From contig CAISZM010000003.1 of NCBI GenBank assembly GCA_903889965.1, positions 54,834-118,833 of the forward strand: a stretch of DNA of 64,000 nucleotides, read 5' to 3'. The stretch is from an uncultured Elusimicrobia bacterium. Its GTDB lineage: Bacteria; Elusimicrobiota; Elusimicrobia; Elusimicrobiales; UBA9959. The position numbers and the translations under genes were made by a program. Under the pieces are notes generated by a model. It saw only the letters and a program-made list of their open reading frames with translations, was not told the DNA's origin and ran no database searches. The first letter of the stretch is position 1. Each line of letters starts with the position of its first letter. Below, piece by piece: positions 3-7,767 of this stretch.

Positions 3-944
3 AAAAATTTCAGGAAAGAAGCGGAAAAGCTGGGCTATCCCCTTATGATAAAGGCCGCGGCCGGAGGGGGCGGCAAGGGAATACGCATCGTCCGTGAAAG
101 CTCCAGGCTGGAGCCGGAGATGAAGATGGCCAAGTCCGAATCAAAGGCGGCCTTCGGCAACGACGAAGTATACTTCGAGAAGTACATAGAGCTGCCGCGC
201 CACATAGAGGTGCAGTTCGCGCGCGACTCGCACGGGCACACGCTGGCCTTCCCGGAGCGCGACTGTTCCATACAGCGCCGCCACCAGAAACTGGTGGAAG
301 AATCCCCCTCGCCGGCGGTTACAAAAAAACTGCGCGAGAGCCTGGAGACGGCTGCCGTCAAACTGGCCGAGACAGCCAACTACGTCGGAGTGGGCACGGT
401 CGAGTTCCTGCTGGACCAGCAGGGAAATTTCTACTTTATGGAGGTCAACACCCGCCTGCAGGTGGAGCACCCCGTCACGGAATTCATCACCGGCTTCGAC
501 CTGGTGCGCGAGCAGCTGCTGGCGGCCTCCGGCGAAAGGCTTTCATACACCGCCGGACACAGCGTTCCCTACCGCGGCCACGCCATAGAACACCGGGTGA
601 ACGCGGAGGATTTCAGCCGGAACTTCGCGCCCTCCATAGGCAGGATCGAGGAATGGCTGCTGCCCGGAGGGCCCGGGGTCCGCGTGGACACACACGTTTA
701 TGCCGGTTACGACCTCCCGATCTACTATGACAGCATGCTGGCTAAACTCATAGTCTGGGCCCCCGACAGGGCATCCGCGGTGGCCAGGTCAAGGCGCGCG
801 CTGGAAGATTTTAAGGTGAAGGGTGTAAAAACCACCATAGACGCCCATAAACTTATAGTGGAAAGCCCCGATTTCCAGGCCGGCAAAACGGATACCGGGT
901 TTATGGAAAGGCTGCTGGCCCCCGCGCAGCCGGTTTCCAAATAG
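3..944 (+). CDS. accC: Biotin carboxylase (acetyl-CoA carboxylase subunit), C-terminal part; 5' end lies outside the window
   Basis: The frame is open from base 3 (KNFRKEAEKLGYPLMIKAAAGGGGKGIRIV). It has the ATP-grasp glycine loop KAAAGGGGKGIR and MEVNTRLQVEHPVTE. The listed ORF 45..944 starts at an internal Met. Confidence 0.9.
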   Translation, partial: KNFRKEAEKLGYPLMIKAAAGGGGKGIRIVRESSRLEPEMKMAKSESKAAFGNDEVYFEKYIELPRHIEVQFARDSHGHTLAFPERDCSIQRRHQKLVEESPSPAVTKKLRESLETAAVKLAETANYVGVGTVEFLLDQQGNFYFMEVNTRLQVEHPVTEFITGFDLVREQLLAASGERLSYTAGHSVPYRGHAIEHRVNAEDFSRNFAPSIGRIEEWLLPGGPGVRVDTHVYAGYDLPIYYDSMLAKLIVWAPDRASAVARSRRALEDFKVKGVKTTIDAHKLIVESPDFQAGKTDTGFMERLLAPAQPVSK

Positions 945-4043: not shown

Positions 4044-4415
4044 ATGAAAGTTCTGGTTGTTGACGATAACGCCCTTATAAGGTCCATGGTAAAGGACTTT
4101 TTAACGGATATGGGCCACGAGGTGGTAGGAGAGGCCGACAATGGCAACGACGCCATAAAGCTTTTTGCGGCAACGCGGCCGGAACTTGTACTGCTGGACC
4201 TGATAATGCCCGGCAAGAACGGTATTGAAACGCTGAAAGAGATAAAGGCCATAGACCGCGGGGCCAGGGTTGTAATGGTAACCGCGGTGCAGCAGGACTC
4301 CGTAAGCAAGGACCTTCTCAGCAAGGGAGCCGCGGCGATACTGAACAAGCCTTTCATGTACTCCGAGCTCGAGGCTTTATTAAAGCCCGCGGACAAACTC
4401 CCCGGAACCATATGA
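4044..4415 (+). CDS. Single-domain response regulator (CheY-like receiver)
   Basis: 123 aa. It has VLVVDDN, the phospho-acceptor context LVLLDLIMPGKNG, and the T/K positions (MVTA, NKPF). A GGAG sits upstream of the ATG. Confidence 0.9.
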   Translation: MKVLVVDDNALIRSMVKDFLTDMGHEVVGEADNGNDAIKLFAATRPELVLLDLIMPGKNGIETLKEIKAIDRGARVVMVTAVQQDSVSKDLLSKGAAAILNKPFMYSELEALLKPADKLPGTI

Positions 4416-5014
4416 ATTCCACACCGGACCCTACGTTAAAAAACCTGGCCGAGACCAGCCTCGCCAAATGCATCGTGAGGATATCCAGGGTTTCGGCCGG
4501 AACCTGGCAGCTGCTGGGAGTGGATGTCTCCTCCGGGACCATCGGAGACGCGGTCAAACGCCACGATTTCAAGGACCCGGCCATTGCGGTGTATTTCAAC
4601 CGGCAGGGAACTTTCCCCCTGGCGGCGATGATGATGTTCGCCCCTTCCCAGATGGAATGCATCTCCAAATGCTTCACTGGACACTCCTTCCCCAGGGGTA
4701 AAACCACCACTATAGCGGAAGCGGTCATGCTGACGGAATTGGGTAATATCGTGCTGAACGCGCTGACGAACGGCCTTCTGAACGCTTTGAACAAAGGATC
4801 GCTTCCCGTCGGCCCCCTGTTCGTGGAGGGAGACGAGAGGCGTGTCACGGCGGAAATAGGGAAAGACATGAACCTGAAACAGGTATTCCGCATAATAACC
4901 GCCACGCTGGAACTCAAGTCCGACAAGTCCGCGGCAAGGAGCGAAGTGCTGGCCCTGCTGCCTGAGGAGCTCGCGATGGAGCTGGAGCTGCGGCAGCCGG
5001 CCGCCGAGTCCTGA
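4412..5014 (+). CDS. CheC/CheX-like protein (putative CheY-P phosphatase family)
   Basis: There is an ATGA overlap with the receiver gene. TELGN is followed by Pro exactly 23 residues after the Asn, which matches E-x2-N-x22-P of the CheC/CheX/FliY active-site consensus. Only one such site is present. Confidence 0.55.
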   Translation: MNSTPDPTLKNLAETSLAKCIVRISRVSAGTWQLLGVDVSSGTIGDAVKRHDFKDPAIAVYFNRQGTFPLAAMMMFAPSQMECISKCFTGHSFPRGKTTTIAEAVMLTELGNIVLNALTNGLLNALNKGSLPVGPLFVEGDERRVTAEIGKDMNLKQVFRIITATLELKSDKSAARSEVLALLPEELAMELELRQPAAES

Positions 5015-5062
5015 AGCTGCCTTCGTCCTCCCGCGCTGAATGAACCCCTTTTTATCCGCACT

Positions 5063-5090
5063 CCCGGCTCGCGGCGGCCGGGCTCTTTTC
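5063..5090 (+). terminator. Possible intrinsic terminator after the CheC-like gene
   Basis: CCCGGC (5063-5068) pairs with GCCGGG (5077-5082) around an 8-nt loop. CTCTTTTC follows the hairpin. The stem is short and the U-tract is weak. Confidence 0.35.
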
Positions 5091-5183
5091 CCGCCCGACA
5101 CCCTTTCCGATTGATCTGATCCTGTTTTTACCGCGCCCCGCATGAACTCCGCAAGCCCCGGACCGGAGGCGCAAAGGAAACAA

Positions 5184-6560
5184 ATGTTCGATAAGCTCCT
5201 CTCAATATACCGCCCGGCCCCGCATACGGACCGCCTGCCCAAAGAACAGCAGGCCCCGAGATATAAAACACTGCGCCTGCAGACGATGTTGTCTATTTTT
5301 TTCGGCTATGCCGGCTTCTACCTGGTGCGCAAGAATTTCTCGCTTGCAAAACCATACCTTATAAACCATTACGGCTTTTCCAAAGGCGATGTGGGCCTCA
5401 TTGCCACCGCCCTCGCCGTCTCCTACGGCCTGAGCAAGTTCGTGATGGGGAATATCTCCGACCGCTCCAACCCCCGCTACTTCATGGGCACCGGCCTGAT
5501 AATTTCAGGCCTCGTAAACCTCTTTTTTCCCACCTTGGCCGGCTCTCTGTGGGCCATGATCGCGCTCTGGTTCGCTAACGGCTGGGCGCAGGGAATGGGC
5601 TGGGCCCCGTGCGCGCGCACTCTGACGCACTGGTTCTCCGACGACGAACGCGGCACCAAGTTCGCCATGTGGAACGTGGCGCACAACGTAGGCGGCGGCA
5701 TAGTGGGCCCCATAATAAACGGCGCGCTTTCGCTTGCGGCTCTCCTGGGACTGGCCGCCCTGACCGGCGACGGCCTGCTGCCGTTTTTCCTCATTTTTTA
5801 TGTGCCGGCCTTTATGGCCATAGCTATGGGCATCCTGGTCATTATTTTCCTGCGCGACACGCCGCAATCCTGCGGCCTGCCTCCGATAGAGGAATATACC
5901 AACGATTATCCCGTCACCGGCGTGGCCGACCCCGAGCGCGAAATGGGCGCCAAAGAGATCCTTTTCAACCATGTTTTCAACAATAAGGCGCTCTGGCTTA
6001 TAGCCTTCGCAAATATTTTCGTCTACGTAGTGCGTTACGGCGTCCTAGACTGGGCCCCCACCTACCTGACCGCCGTTAAGGGCTGCCCAGCCGGCACGGC
6101 GCGCTGGCAGTTCTTCGTCTATGAATGGGCCGGCATACCCGGCACGCTCCTCGCCGGTTGGGCCAGCGACAAATACTTCCAGGGACGCAAGGGACCCGTT
6201 TCGGTGATCTGCATGGTCTTCGTCACGCTGGCCGTGTACGTCTACTGGAAGAACCCGGCCAACCGCTTCTGGGTGGATTCGGCATCCCTGTTCGTAATAG
6301 GTTTCCTTATCTACGGGCCGGTGATGCTTATAGGCGTAAGCGCGGTGGACCTGGTGCCGAAGAAAGCTGCCGGTACCGCGGCGGGCTTTACGGGCTTTTT
6401 CGGCTACATGTTCGGCGCGGTGATAGCGGAGGTGGGGATAGGGCGCGTGGTGGACCGCTGGGGCTGGGACGGCGGTTTTAAACTGCTGTTTGTCGCCTGC
6501 GTGCTGGCTACCATACTGCTGGCCATGACCTGGAACAAGCACCACGCCGCGGACCGGTAA
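5184..6560 (+). CDS. glpT: Glycerol-3-phosphate transporter (MFS, organophosphate:Pi antiporter)
   Basis: Near-colinear resemblance to E. coli GlpT as remembered: SIYRPAPHTDRLP, FFGYAGFYLVRKNF, SDRSNPR, RDTPQSCGLPPIEEY, PKKAAGTAAGFTG. The start is moved to Met15 (5184), which has an AAGGA 8 nt upstream. The ORF track starts at 5142. Confidence 0.9.
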   Translation: MFDKLLSIYRPAPHTDRLPKEQQAPRYKTLRLQTMLSIFFGYAGFYLVRKNFSLAKPYLINHYGFSKGDVGLIATALAVSYGLSKFVMGNISDRSNPRYFMGTGLIISGLVNLFFPTLAGSLWAMIALWFANGWAQGMGWAPCARTLTHWFSDDERGTKFAMWNVAHNVGGGIVGPIINGALSLAALLGLAALTGDGLLPFFLIFYVPAFMAIAMGILVIIFLRDTPQSCGLPPIEEYTNDYPVTGVADPEREMGAKEILFNHVFNNKALWLIAFANIFVYVVRYGVLDWAPTYLTAVKGCPAGTARWQFFVYEWAGIPGTLLAGWASDKYFQGRKGPVSVICMVFVTLAVYVYWKNPANRFWVDSASLFVIGFLIYGPVMLIGVSAVDLVPKKAAGTAAGFTGFFGYMFGAVIAEVGIGRVVDRWGWDGGFKLLFVACVLATILLAMTWNKHHAADR

Positions 6561-6851
6561 CCGGGGGCCCTTTAAATTTTAGGCGTTCATAAGCCCAGGT
6601 AACGGCAGGCCTGCACGTTCGCGGGTCCTGCCGGCGGACTGGAACGCGAAAACAGCCGCAGACGGGGGCTTTGTCGGCCACACCGTAGCCGCACCTCCCC
6701 GCCTCACCCTCGCCGCTATGCAAGGCTCGGGTTCCGGCAGGGTTTCGCTTATCCAGCTCCGCCGTCTCCCTGCTCCAATTATTCGCCTGCCGAAGAATAT
6801 TTAGAGCGGATGACGATGGATTTTTTTATAAGCAGGCTAATTTCATTCGGA

Positions 6852-6985
6852 GGGGCGGCGACGGTTTTGGGTTAGCAGGACCGTCTCGGAGGCCGACCTG
6901 GGCTTATCTGCGGTGGAGGCCGAGAGCCGGAGGGGCCGACGCGCTGGAGGACCCCGTTCCTGCGCTCCAAAACCGTTGGCGCCCC
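6852..6985 (+). other. 134-nt GGAGG-rich hairpin element (candidate structured RNA or cis-regulatory leader)
   Basis: 6852-6870 pairs with 6967-6985: 17 Watson-Crick pairs, 1 G-U and 1 mismatch over 19 positions. An inner stem pairs GCAGGA 6875-6880 with TCCTGC 6958-6963. Four GGAGG motifs lie inside the element and one at its 5' edge. No ORF explains the region. Confidence 0.35.
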
Positions 6986-7014
6986 GACTTCAAACCTCGC
7001 GGTTCATATAAAGC

Positions 7015-7767
7015 ATGAAAATATTTACTACTCTCATACAGCACACACGAAAAAGCCTATATTTATTCGCCACGCTGCTACTGGCGGGGACGGCGGCGCA
7101 GGCGCAGCAGAAAACGGTTAGTTTTTCTACGCGGGACGGCTGCCGCTTGGAAGCTTTCCACCTGCGCCCCTCCTCCGCGCCCTATGTCTTTATAAATTCC
7201 CACGGCCTCGGCTCCGACAAGAACGAATGGTCCCGTTTCCAGGAAAAACTAAAGGACGCAGGTTACGGCTACCTGTCGCTGGACCTGCGCGGCCACGGCG
7301 CCAGCCGCACCTGCGCCGGCAAGGAAGTTGATTACAGGGATTTCTCTGAAGCCGACTGGAATAATGTCTCCCGCGACATAGAAGCCGCGGCGGCCTGGCT
7401 GAGGAAGAAAGGCGTACCGGAGAAAAAGATGATCTTCTGCGGCGCCAGCATAGGGGCCAACCTTTCTTTAAAAGCCGCGGCTGAGGGCAGGTTAAAACCA
7501 GCGGCCGTAATACTGCTTTCCCCCGGGGTAGAATACGCCGGGGTAAAGACCGCGGAGAACTATATTTCGAAACACACTTTCAAGATCCTGGTAGCCGCCT
7601 CCGAAGACGACCCGTATGCCTGGCAGAGCTATATATACCTTTCCCGTTCCGCCTCCGAAAAGGGCCTACCTGCCGACTTTATAAACGGCGGCAGCGGCCA
7701 CGGCGTGAACATGTTCAAAACGCCGTCGGTGATCCCAGCCATCCTCACCTGGGTTTCCGGTATATAA
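7015..7767 (+). CDS. Secreted alpha/beta-fold hydrolase
   Basis: It has an N-terminal signal peptide (LLLAGTAAQAQQ), the nucleophile elbow GASIGAN (G-x-S-x-G), and a C-terminal GSGHG histidine region. Confidence 0.75.
   Translation: MKIFTTLIQHTRKSLYLFATLLLAGTAAQAQQKTVSFSTRDGCRLEAFHLRPSSAPYVFINSHGLGSDKNEWSRFQEKLKDAGYGYLSLDLRGHGASRTCAGKEVDYRDFSEADWNNVSRDIEAAAAWLRKKGVPEKKMIFCGASIGANLSLKAAAEGRLKPAAVILLSPGVEYAGVKTAENYISKHTFKILVAASEDDPYAWQSYIYLSRSASEKGLPADFINGGSGHGVNMFKTPSVIPAILTWVSGI

Follow-up and report, generated by a model that had tools for sequence, protein, structure and literature searches.

The 454-nt gap that separates a transporter gene from a hydrolase gene in an uncultured Elusimicrobia bacterium carries a GGAGG-rich hairpin. 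We show here that this hairpin belongs to a scattered, folded repeat of about 150 nt, of which it is a diverged copy on the opposite strand, and that it is not an RNA dedicated to the hydrolase gene. A second copy lies upstream of it, on the plus strand, and we consider it probable (roughly 0.6) that the gap as a whole is an inverted doublet of an interspersed structured palindromic repeat, i.e., a non-autonomous element whose local effect would be incidental. The best reading of the family is that of a REPIN/ERIC-like interspersed palindromic repeat, apparently undescribed so far, which occurs in a groundwater and freshwater clade of Elusimicrobia. An earlier interpretation, made from the letters of this DNA (hereafter, the sequence-only reading), had proposed three roles for the hairpin: a sponging small RNA, a structured leader of the hydrolase gene, or a degenerate repeat element. 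The comparative data uphold the last of these and go against the other two.

The MFS-hydrolase locus and its insertion

The window is the whole stretch of DNA that was analysed (64 kb), and all the positions given below without a contig name refer to it. The gap and its flanks are composed as follows.

5142–6560, plus strand: MFS transporter gene, upstream flank of the gap (Pfam MFS_1, E = 1e-45)
6589–6606, plus strand: short inverted match to the apical part of unit B (16/18 positions, including an exact 12-mer)
6618–6783, plus strand: repeat unit A, four helices, outer helix at about 6632–6764
6784–6840, no strand: inter-unit spacer, 42% G+C, sequence not conserved
6841–6988, minus strand: repeat unit B, the 134-nt hairpin of the sequence-only reading, a diverged family member
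6996–7005, plus strand: flanking tail motif CTCGCGGTTC (GAACCGCGAG in the family orientation)
7015–7767, plus strand: alpha/beta-hydrolase gene, downstream flank (Pfam Hydrolase_4 and Abhydrolase families)

Downstream of the hydrolase gene, the minus strand carries a ThiF-family and a TatD-family gene. All the relatives found for the MFS protein (n = 17, 68–86% identity) come from Elusimicrobia MAGs, and the MFS-hydrolase gene order is retained in 13 related Elusimicrobia genomes. In 12 of these 13 syntenic relatives, the two genes overlap or are separated by 0–86 nt, the hydrolase start adjoining the MFS stop, against 454 nt in the window; because the spacer is short or absent in the relatives, the gap has to be considered as an insertion. 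The L001 genome has a spacer of 182 nt that contains unit A only and is homologous to window positions 6610–6770 only. At this locus, the hairpin-bearing part of the gap (about 6785–6995) is thus unique to the source organism. The databases contain no close relative of this organism, and since the next-best hydrolase is only 69% identical, there is no graded series for the hairpin at its own locus. Other assemblies of the source organism are identical to the window wherever they overlap it, and two other assemblies of the locus begin inside unit B, at positions 6863 (L019) and 6926 (an ENA contig).

The start of the hydrolase gene is ambiguous. A 250-aa ORF begins at the ATG at 7015, while the public gene calls begin 132 nt downstream (near 7147). 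In the longer ORF, the N-terminus resembles a signal peptide, exceeds that of the relatives by 11 residues and is followed by the conserved QQKTV; the public call P0001 (206 aa, 100% identity) is made without this N-terminus. The ancestral start context, which abutted the MFS stop codon, was removed by the repeat insertion. On the other side of the locus, just upstream of the MFS gene (4354–5143), overlapping ORFs of about 200–268 aa are present on both strands, without any Pfam match.

Features of the gap

The features described by the sequence-only reading are present. The arms of the outer stem (6852–6870 and 6967–6985) are exact, with 19 nt forming 17 Watson-Crick pairs, one G-U and one G-G on the plus strand, and the inner stem pairs GCAGGA (6875–6880) with TCCTGC (6958–6963). 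GGAGG starts exactly at 6849, 6888, 6915, 6929 and 6946, and three of these motifs stand in the context GGAGG(GG)CCGA. The upstream half of the gap carries one exact CCTCC (6694) and several CTCC. With 100 GGAGG in 64 kb (0.16 per 100 nt), the hairpin is the densest cluster of the window, where no other stretch of 102 nt contains five of them. Neither the hairpin nor the GGAGGCCGA motif occurs a second time elsewhere in the window.

The inverted repeat of 12 nt that had been noticed between 6589–6600 and 6896–6907 is also exact and forms part of a longer match of 16 of 18 positions (6589–6606 and 6890–6907), a score that none of 500 shuffled sequences equals. The 6589–6606 segment matches the apex of unit B of the window and no other family member; it either arose by a local inverted duplication or is what remains of another B-type copy. 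A third, truncated copy of the family at 6561–6617 was considered and rejected, the only resemblance being this 18-nt match to the B apex, which no other member shares.

Folded as RNA, positions 6840–6995 reach −82.1 kcal/mol on the plus strand (z = −4.0) and −66.1 kcal/mol on the minus strand (z = −2.1). In the plus-strand fold, the final two G of every GGAGG are paired, the GGA is unpaired at 6888 only, where it lies in an internal loop, and none of the five motifs is located in an apical loop. A consensus scan of 6400–7200 revealed no promoter-like or terminator-like site, it being understood that Elusimicrobia promoters are poorly known. No match to a described family was obtained with Rfam 15 at gathering score anywhere in the window, and at permissive thresholds the gap, L064 and L001 sequences gave generic hairpin noise only (e.g., miRNA precursors and snoRNAs).

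Several other origins of the gap were tried. A decayed coding sequence was rejected, as translated searches showed that the ORFs of the gap do not exceed 71 aa and have no Pfam match, and as the repeat units account for the region. A small ORF of a type I toxin-antitoxin system was also set aside, since the 21-aa ORF at 6810–6875 has no counterpart in L064, and a tandem or direct repeat origin is unsupported.

Motifs resembling Shine-Dalgarno sequences (GGAG, GAGG or AGGA within 20 nt upstream) precede about 12 of 52 crude ORF starts in the window. Many window ORFs have A/T-rich leaders instead, and the organism seems to place little reliance on Shine-Dalgarno pairing.

A dispersed family of structured repeats

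We built two covariance models, i.e., R1 from two sequences (unit A of the window and the L001 spacer) and R2 from six copies (149 model positions), from which unit B of the window was excluded. The family sample comprises eight copies (including a truncated one) drawn from six genomes, and the E-values of the covariance models are rough. With R1, unit A scores 192 bits, and matches were obtained in L013 (3374–3524, plus strand, 84 bits), in L015 (1094–1224, minus strand, 82 bits) and twice in L064 (2–147, plus strand, 97 bits; 238–335, minus strand, 50 bits), together with a weak match to the hairpin of the gap on its minus strand (22 bits). With R2, unit A scores 135.8 bits and unit B, although absent from the training set, scores 40.2 bits (E ~3e-8). 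With the filters off, these two units are the sole window hits below E = 0.1, and 240 kb of unrelated viral DNA gave no match at E ≤ 0.1. A direct sequence alignment of A with B is not significant, and their homology is visible only via the covariance model. A third B-like copy was found in L012, where it is cut off by the contig end.

Copies of the family are located at three unrelated loci in six genomes, and two of these loci are filled in some genomes and empty in others.

MFS-hydrolase spacer: filled in the window (A and B) and in L001 (A); empty in 12 other syntenic relatives
3' of a PilZ gene: filled in L064 (A and B) and in L013 (A); empty in the L001 genome and in L070
moaC-MOSC spacer: filled in L015 and L012

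The idea of a degenerate repeat element was essentially right. The copies sit between co-directional genes, in either orientation relative to those genes. The same doublet, with A on the plus strand, a spacer and B on the minus strand, exists at two unrelated loci, over 371 nt in the window and 346 nt in L064. These two doublets are collinear over about 400 nt and the spacers between model hits are of similar length (57 nt in the window vs 51 nt in L064), while being unrelated in sequence. At both doublet loci, unit A is found alone in a relative.

Unit A of the window, which carries an insertion of 17 nt relative to the other copies, is presumably orthologous to the L001 copy in the same spacer, the orthology of copies sharing a spacer being assumed throughout. 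Unit A (6618–6783) and the L001 spacer have the same fold architecture, with 7 of 33 pairs changed on both sides and none broken. Unit B keeps helices 1, 2 and 4, the latter with a longer loop, and helix 3 (the CACACCGTG hairpin, CACACCGUG in the family) is degenerate or lost. Its helix 2 is made of GCAGGA and UCCUGC vs GCAAAAC and GUUUUGC in the other copies, and its minus strand retains GGA(G)CGC...GACGGUCCUGCUAACCC. The closest relative of unit B is the minus-strand copy of L064 (199–347); their outer stems differ and pair in both, 9 of 38 pairs being compensatory, and the two copies have common termini, CGGAGGGGCGGC...GCCCCGACT on the plus strand. The CTCGCGGTTC tail is conserved beside the B-type copies of the window, L064 and L012.

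More generally, the family has shared ends, GTCGGGG...CCCCTCCG, B-type copies being provided with a GAACCGCGAG leader. Around none of the copies was a direct repeat found that could be a target-site duplication, and the copies lack sharp boundaries. GTCGGGG is not over-represented when counted as a short motif dispersed in the DNA. The 86-nt MFS-hydrolase spacer of L013 (5384–5470) is G-rich and contains tandem GTCGGGG heptamers at 5438, 5445 and 5452 as well as similar TCGGGG units, GTCGGGG being also the 5' terminal motif of the family.

The density of copies is low, with two in the 64-kb window and none in an extra 45 kb or so from relatives. The two copies of L064, although from one genome, are only about 56–72% identical to each other, and the helix-4 subtypes (TATGCAAG vs TTACGCAAG) are shared across species and not within a genome, both coexisting in one genome. 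Because of this low identity and of these cross-species subtypes, the family has the look of old paralogues under constraint and not that of a recent burst. Some copies are incomplete, such as that of L015, in which helix 1 is deleted. Besides the two assemblies that begin inside unit B, the end of the L064 contig lies 1 nt outside unit A, and that of the L012 contig comes after exactly 54 nt of its copy, which is what an assembler with k = 55 would give at a repeat boundary. Such ends are expected for repeats or for insertion polymorphism, and these four contig ends at or inside copies suggest that further similar copies or an insertion polymorphism exist in those populations.

A transposase or RAYT-like ORF was sought in about 500 kb of part-genome DNA by tblastn with an approximate query and none was found. 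Scans of viral contigs yielded no real family match, and a metagenome scan with the stem cores of the hairpin (not with the family motifs) yielded 42 loci, all of them unrelated inverted repeats. An unrelated conserved element was observed in metagenome contigs, several of them titled as human-gut (L024, L028, L030, L032–L035, L037, L040, L041, L046, L048, L049, L052, L054, L059 and L061). It consists of perfect inverted repeats of about 29 nt (AAAACACGTTCTGATGACGGTTTTGGTAG) around an interior of about 90 nt, is near-identical across many contigs, and could be a terminal-inverted-repeat or an invertible element.

Fold, covariation and strand

The family unit, of about 130–150 nt, contains 29 pairs distributed in four helices with one branch point. 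Helices 1 and 2 constitute a long outer stem which encloses two small hairpins, i.e., helices 3 and 4. In the six-copy alignment, which was fitted to the model and hence favours structure, 98% of the pair cells are standard pairs and 16 of the 29 pairs are changed on both sides. None of 500 shuffles reaches the observed values, and sliding the 3' partners by 1–3 columns leaves at most four pairs that are changed on both sides. Two-sequence MAFFT alignments independently give the same covariation picture. When any two copies are compared, nearly all the pairs that differ have changed in a compensatory way, with few one-sided changes. The stems first described in the hairpin thus do covary in related genomes.

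The unpaired segments (loops and bulges) are as conserved as the paired ones. Loop and bulge sequences such as GAACGCAAAAC, CACACCGUG, GCUAUGCAAGC and GCUAAUCC are conserved across genomes whose MFS proteins are 68–86% identical to that of the window. In the family orientation, each copy contains two to five CCTC and two to five CTCC, vs about 0.75 expected, and zero or one of each of the complements GAGG and GGAG. Read on its minus strand, unit B contains five CCTCC, which are the five GGAGG of the plus strand. Thus, the GGAGG cluster and its GGAGG(GG)CCGA context are the complement of the UCGGcCUC-type segments conserved in the family, as seen in a minus-strand copy, and the same pyrimidine richness, in the plus-strand unit A, gives the upstream half its CCTCC/CTCC motifs. 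The number of GGAGG is not conserved, with two in the B copy of L064 vs five in unit B of the window.

The strand that is folded cannot be read from the pairing. Of the 153 pair cells of the family, 148 are Watson-Crick, one is G-U and two are A-C, and this near-absence of G-U and A-C pairs leaves no strand signal. The G-rich strand folds better in every copy, whatever its genomic orientation, so that base composition accounts for the hairpin folding better on its plus strand. The argument for a plus-strand RNA that the sequence-only reading had drawn from the single G-U pair of the outer stem thus fails.

Origin and maintenance of the doublet

We propose that unit A, on the plus strand, and unit B, on the minus strand, would have been inserted as a doublet, with a spacer of about 55 nt between their facing 3' ends, and that singlets may be the sites where one of the two units was lost. 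The family would then be, now or formerly, non-autonomous mobile or duplicative DNA, whose fold would be preserved at the level of DNA or on both strands. This could take place by two routes, i.e., through a transposase that recognises folded single-stranded DNA, or through the arm-to-arm correction of a quasi-palindrome. A covariation made of Watson-Crick pairs only fits a constraint on single-stranded DNA or on both strands, or quasi-palindrome correction, and is a poorer fit to selection on one RNA strand. At the locus studied here, the insertion split a formerly abutting MFS-hydrolase pair, and a read-through transcript would gain two very stable hairpins, possibly acting as barriers to processing or decay. 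Several observations stand against a mobile repeat. The copies of the window and of L001 differ by seven compensatory pairs with none broken, which suggests selection on the fold in place. The density is low, and neither a transposase, nor a target-site duplication, nor a near-identical pair of copies was seen in the DNA searched.

These observations are compatible with an alternative that we regard as possible and hold at a rather low probability, in which the unit is a structured small RNA encoded in several copies, which would be transcribed in the family orientation (unit A on the plus strand and unit B on the minus strand) and acting in trans. The conserved loops, together with a pyrimidine-rich, anti-Shine-Dalgarno-like single-stranded linker or tail (CCUC/CUCC), might for example pair with purine-rich ribosome-binding regions or bind a protein. 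The four covarying helices, the loops and bulges conserved across genomes, the compensatory changes between presumed orthologous copies, the helix-4 subtypes common across species, and the enrichment of CCTC/CTCC with depletion of GAGG/GGAG in the family orientation are all consistent with it, and the lack of any Rfam match means that such an RNA would be new. The unit of about 150 nt might accordingly represent a new structured RNA class in Elusimicrobia, selected by the host, with several paralogues per genome sometimes arranged in convergent pairs, a reading to which we give the same tentative credit; were it true, unit A of the window would be a functional gene and unit B its decaying partner. 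However, neither end of the unit has a conserved promoter or terminator, one G-U among 153 pairs is unusual for a constraint at the RNA level, contig ends coincide with copies, truncated or degenerate copies exist (unit B without helix 3, L015 without helix 1), and presence or absence varies at orthologous sites.

The two remaining explanations concern the gap itself. The one favoured by the sequence-only reading, namely that the plus strand of 6849–6988 is a functional RNA which titrates CsrA or ribosomes through its GGAGG or forms a structured leader of the hydrolase gene, now appears very improbable. The plus strand does have the more stable fold (z = −4.0 vs −2.1) and the highest GGAGG density of the window, and in both the window and L012 the B-type copy ends 25–35 nt before a start codon and is followed by the shared CTCGCGGTTC tail and an A/T-rich run. 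But the better fold goes with the G-rich strand in every copy and in any context, and the GGAGG, which reflect the CCUC/CUCC richness of the family, number two in the B copy of L064 against five here and lie in an apical loop in none of the five cases. A leader is contradicted by the absence of the hairpin upstream of all 13 hydrolase orthologues in the syntenic relatives and by homologues located beside unrelated genes in both orientations, the B copy of L064 facing the 3' end of a convergent gene. Moreover, 6400–7200 lacks promoter and terminator signals, a tblastn search for csrA with an approximate query gave no match in the window and sampled loci (a partial genome), and Shine-Dalgarno usage is weak in the source organism. 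It is similarly improbable that the gap is an invertible, phase-variable segment, in which the arms 6589–6606 and 6890–6907, or units A and B, would flip the DNA upstream of the hydrolase gene. In favour of it, the short inverted repeat has 12 exact nt and is non-random, the segment includes a spacer of relatively low G+C, and two independent assemblies break inside B, one on each side of the right arm (6863 and 6926). Yet the break positions do not match the repeat arms, four longer contigs share the orientation of the window, no recombinase gene was found adjoining the locus and no promoter-like site within the segment, and A and B are already explained by the repeat family. We therefore retain the inverted doublet of an interspersed palindromic repeat as our reading of the gap.

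Significance of the family

This case illustrates how a striking cluster of motifs can be a by-product, the five Shine-Dalgarno-like GGAGG coming from the reading of the wrong strand of a repeat. Such repeats can pass for riboswitches or small RNAs. They also break metagenome assemblies and disrupt operons; here, a transporter-hydrolase pair was separated and the start of the hydrolase gene left ambiguous. The family shows an unusually clean covariation and is apparently undescribed, in a phylum that is poorly studied and mostly uncultivated. If it is constrained at the RNA level, it would constitute a new structured RNA class; if at the DNA level, it would extend the doublet organisation of REPINs to much larger, branched units.

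Comparison with known systems

The hairpin resembles the CsrB/RsmZ-type small RNAs by its dense GGA-containing motifs in a structured region of about 140 nt. It differs from them in that these motifs lie outside hairpin loops and on the strand opposite to the family orientation, that their number varies between homologues, that the region is not conserved at its locus, and that no promoter or terminator of its own was found.

The ERIC (or IRU) sequences of enterobacteria are long imperfect palindromes of 127 bp which form a single long hairpin, and for which doublets are not defining. Likened by description and not by sequence, ERIC-type palindromes would be the closest to our family in size and genomic behaviour. 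In both cases, intergenic imperfect palindromes of similar size lie between co-directional genes in either orientation, are patchy at orthologous sites, present internal indel variants and are conserved in sequence between species. No sequence relationship is expected between them, and the single hairpin of ERIC contrasts with the branched unit described here.

Bacterial MITEs, such as the Correia elements (review PMC3184786), are likewise small, non-coding, hairpin-forming and often located between genes of one operon, and they give filled vs empty sites among related genomes, as observed here at the MFS-hydrolase and PilZ sites. In contrast with MITEs, a signature of terminal inverted repeats and target-site duplication is not definable in our family, its parent insertion sequence is not known, and the two copies of one genome (L064) are not near-identical (56–72%), although the contig ends at or inside copies suggest further similar copies or an insertion polymorphism.

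REPINs, or REP-BIMEs, and their RAYT transposases have been described in Pseudomonas and E. coli (PMC3116915, PMC3337134, PMC3333891). The comparison uses the properties of an inverted doublet, in which two repeat units are separated by a spacer whose length, and not its sequence, is conserved (PMC3116915). The differences lie in the size of the units (130–150 nt with four helices and a junction vs simple hairpins of 20–40 nt), in the fact that each unit folds here on itself and not with its partner, in the low density observed with no RAYT gene seen in about 500 kb (approximate query), in a head of the GTAG/CGTC type that is not defined here, and in the phylum. By analogy, REPINs would nevertheless be the closest described design (PMC3116915, PMC3333891): as in our family, extragenic palindromic units are arranged as inverted doublets with conserved spacing (57 vs 51 nt here), singlets occur where a doublet is expected, compensatory changes keep the hairpin, and hairpins are predicted to form in single-stranded DNA or mRNA.
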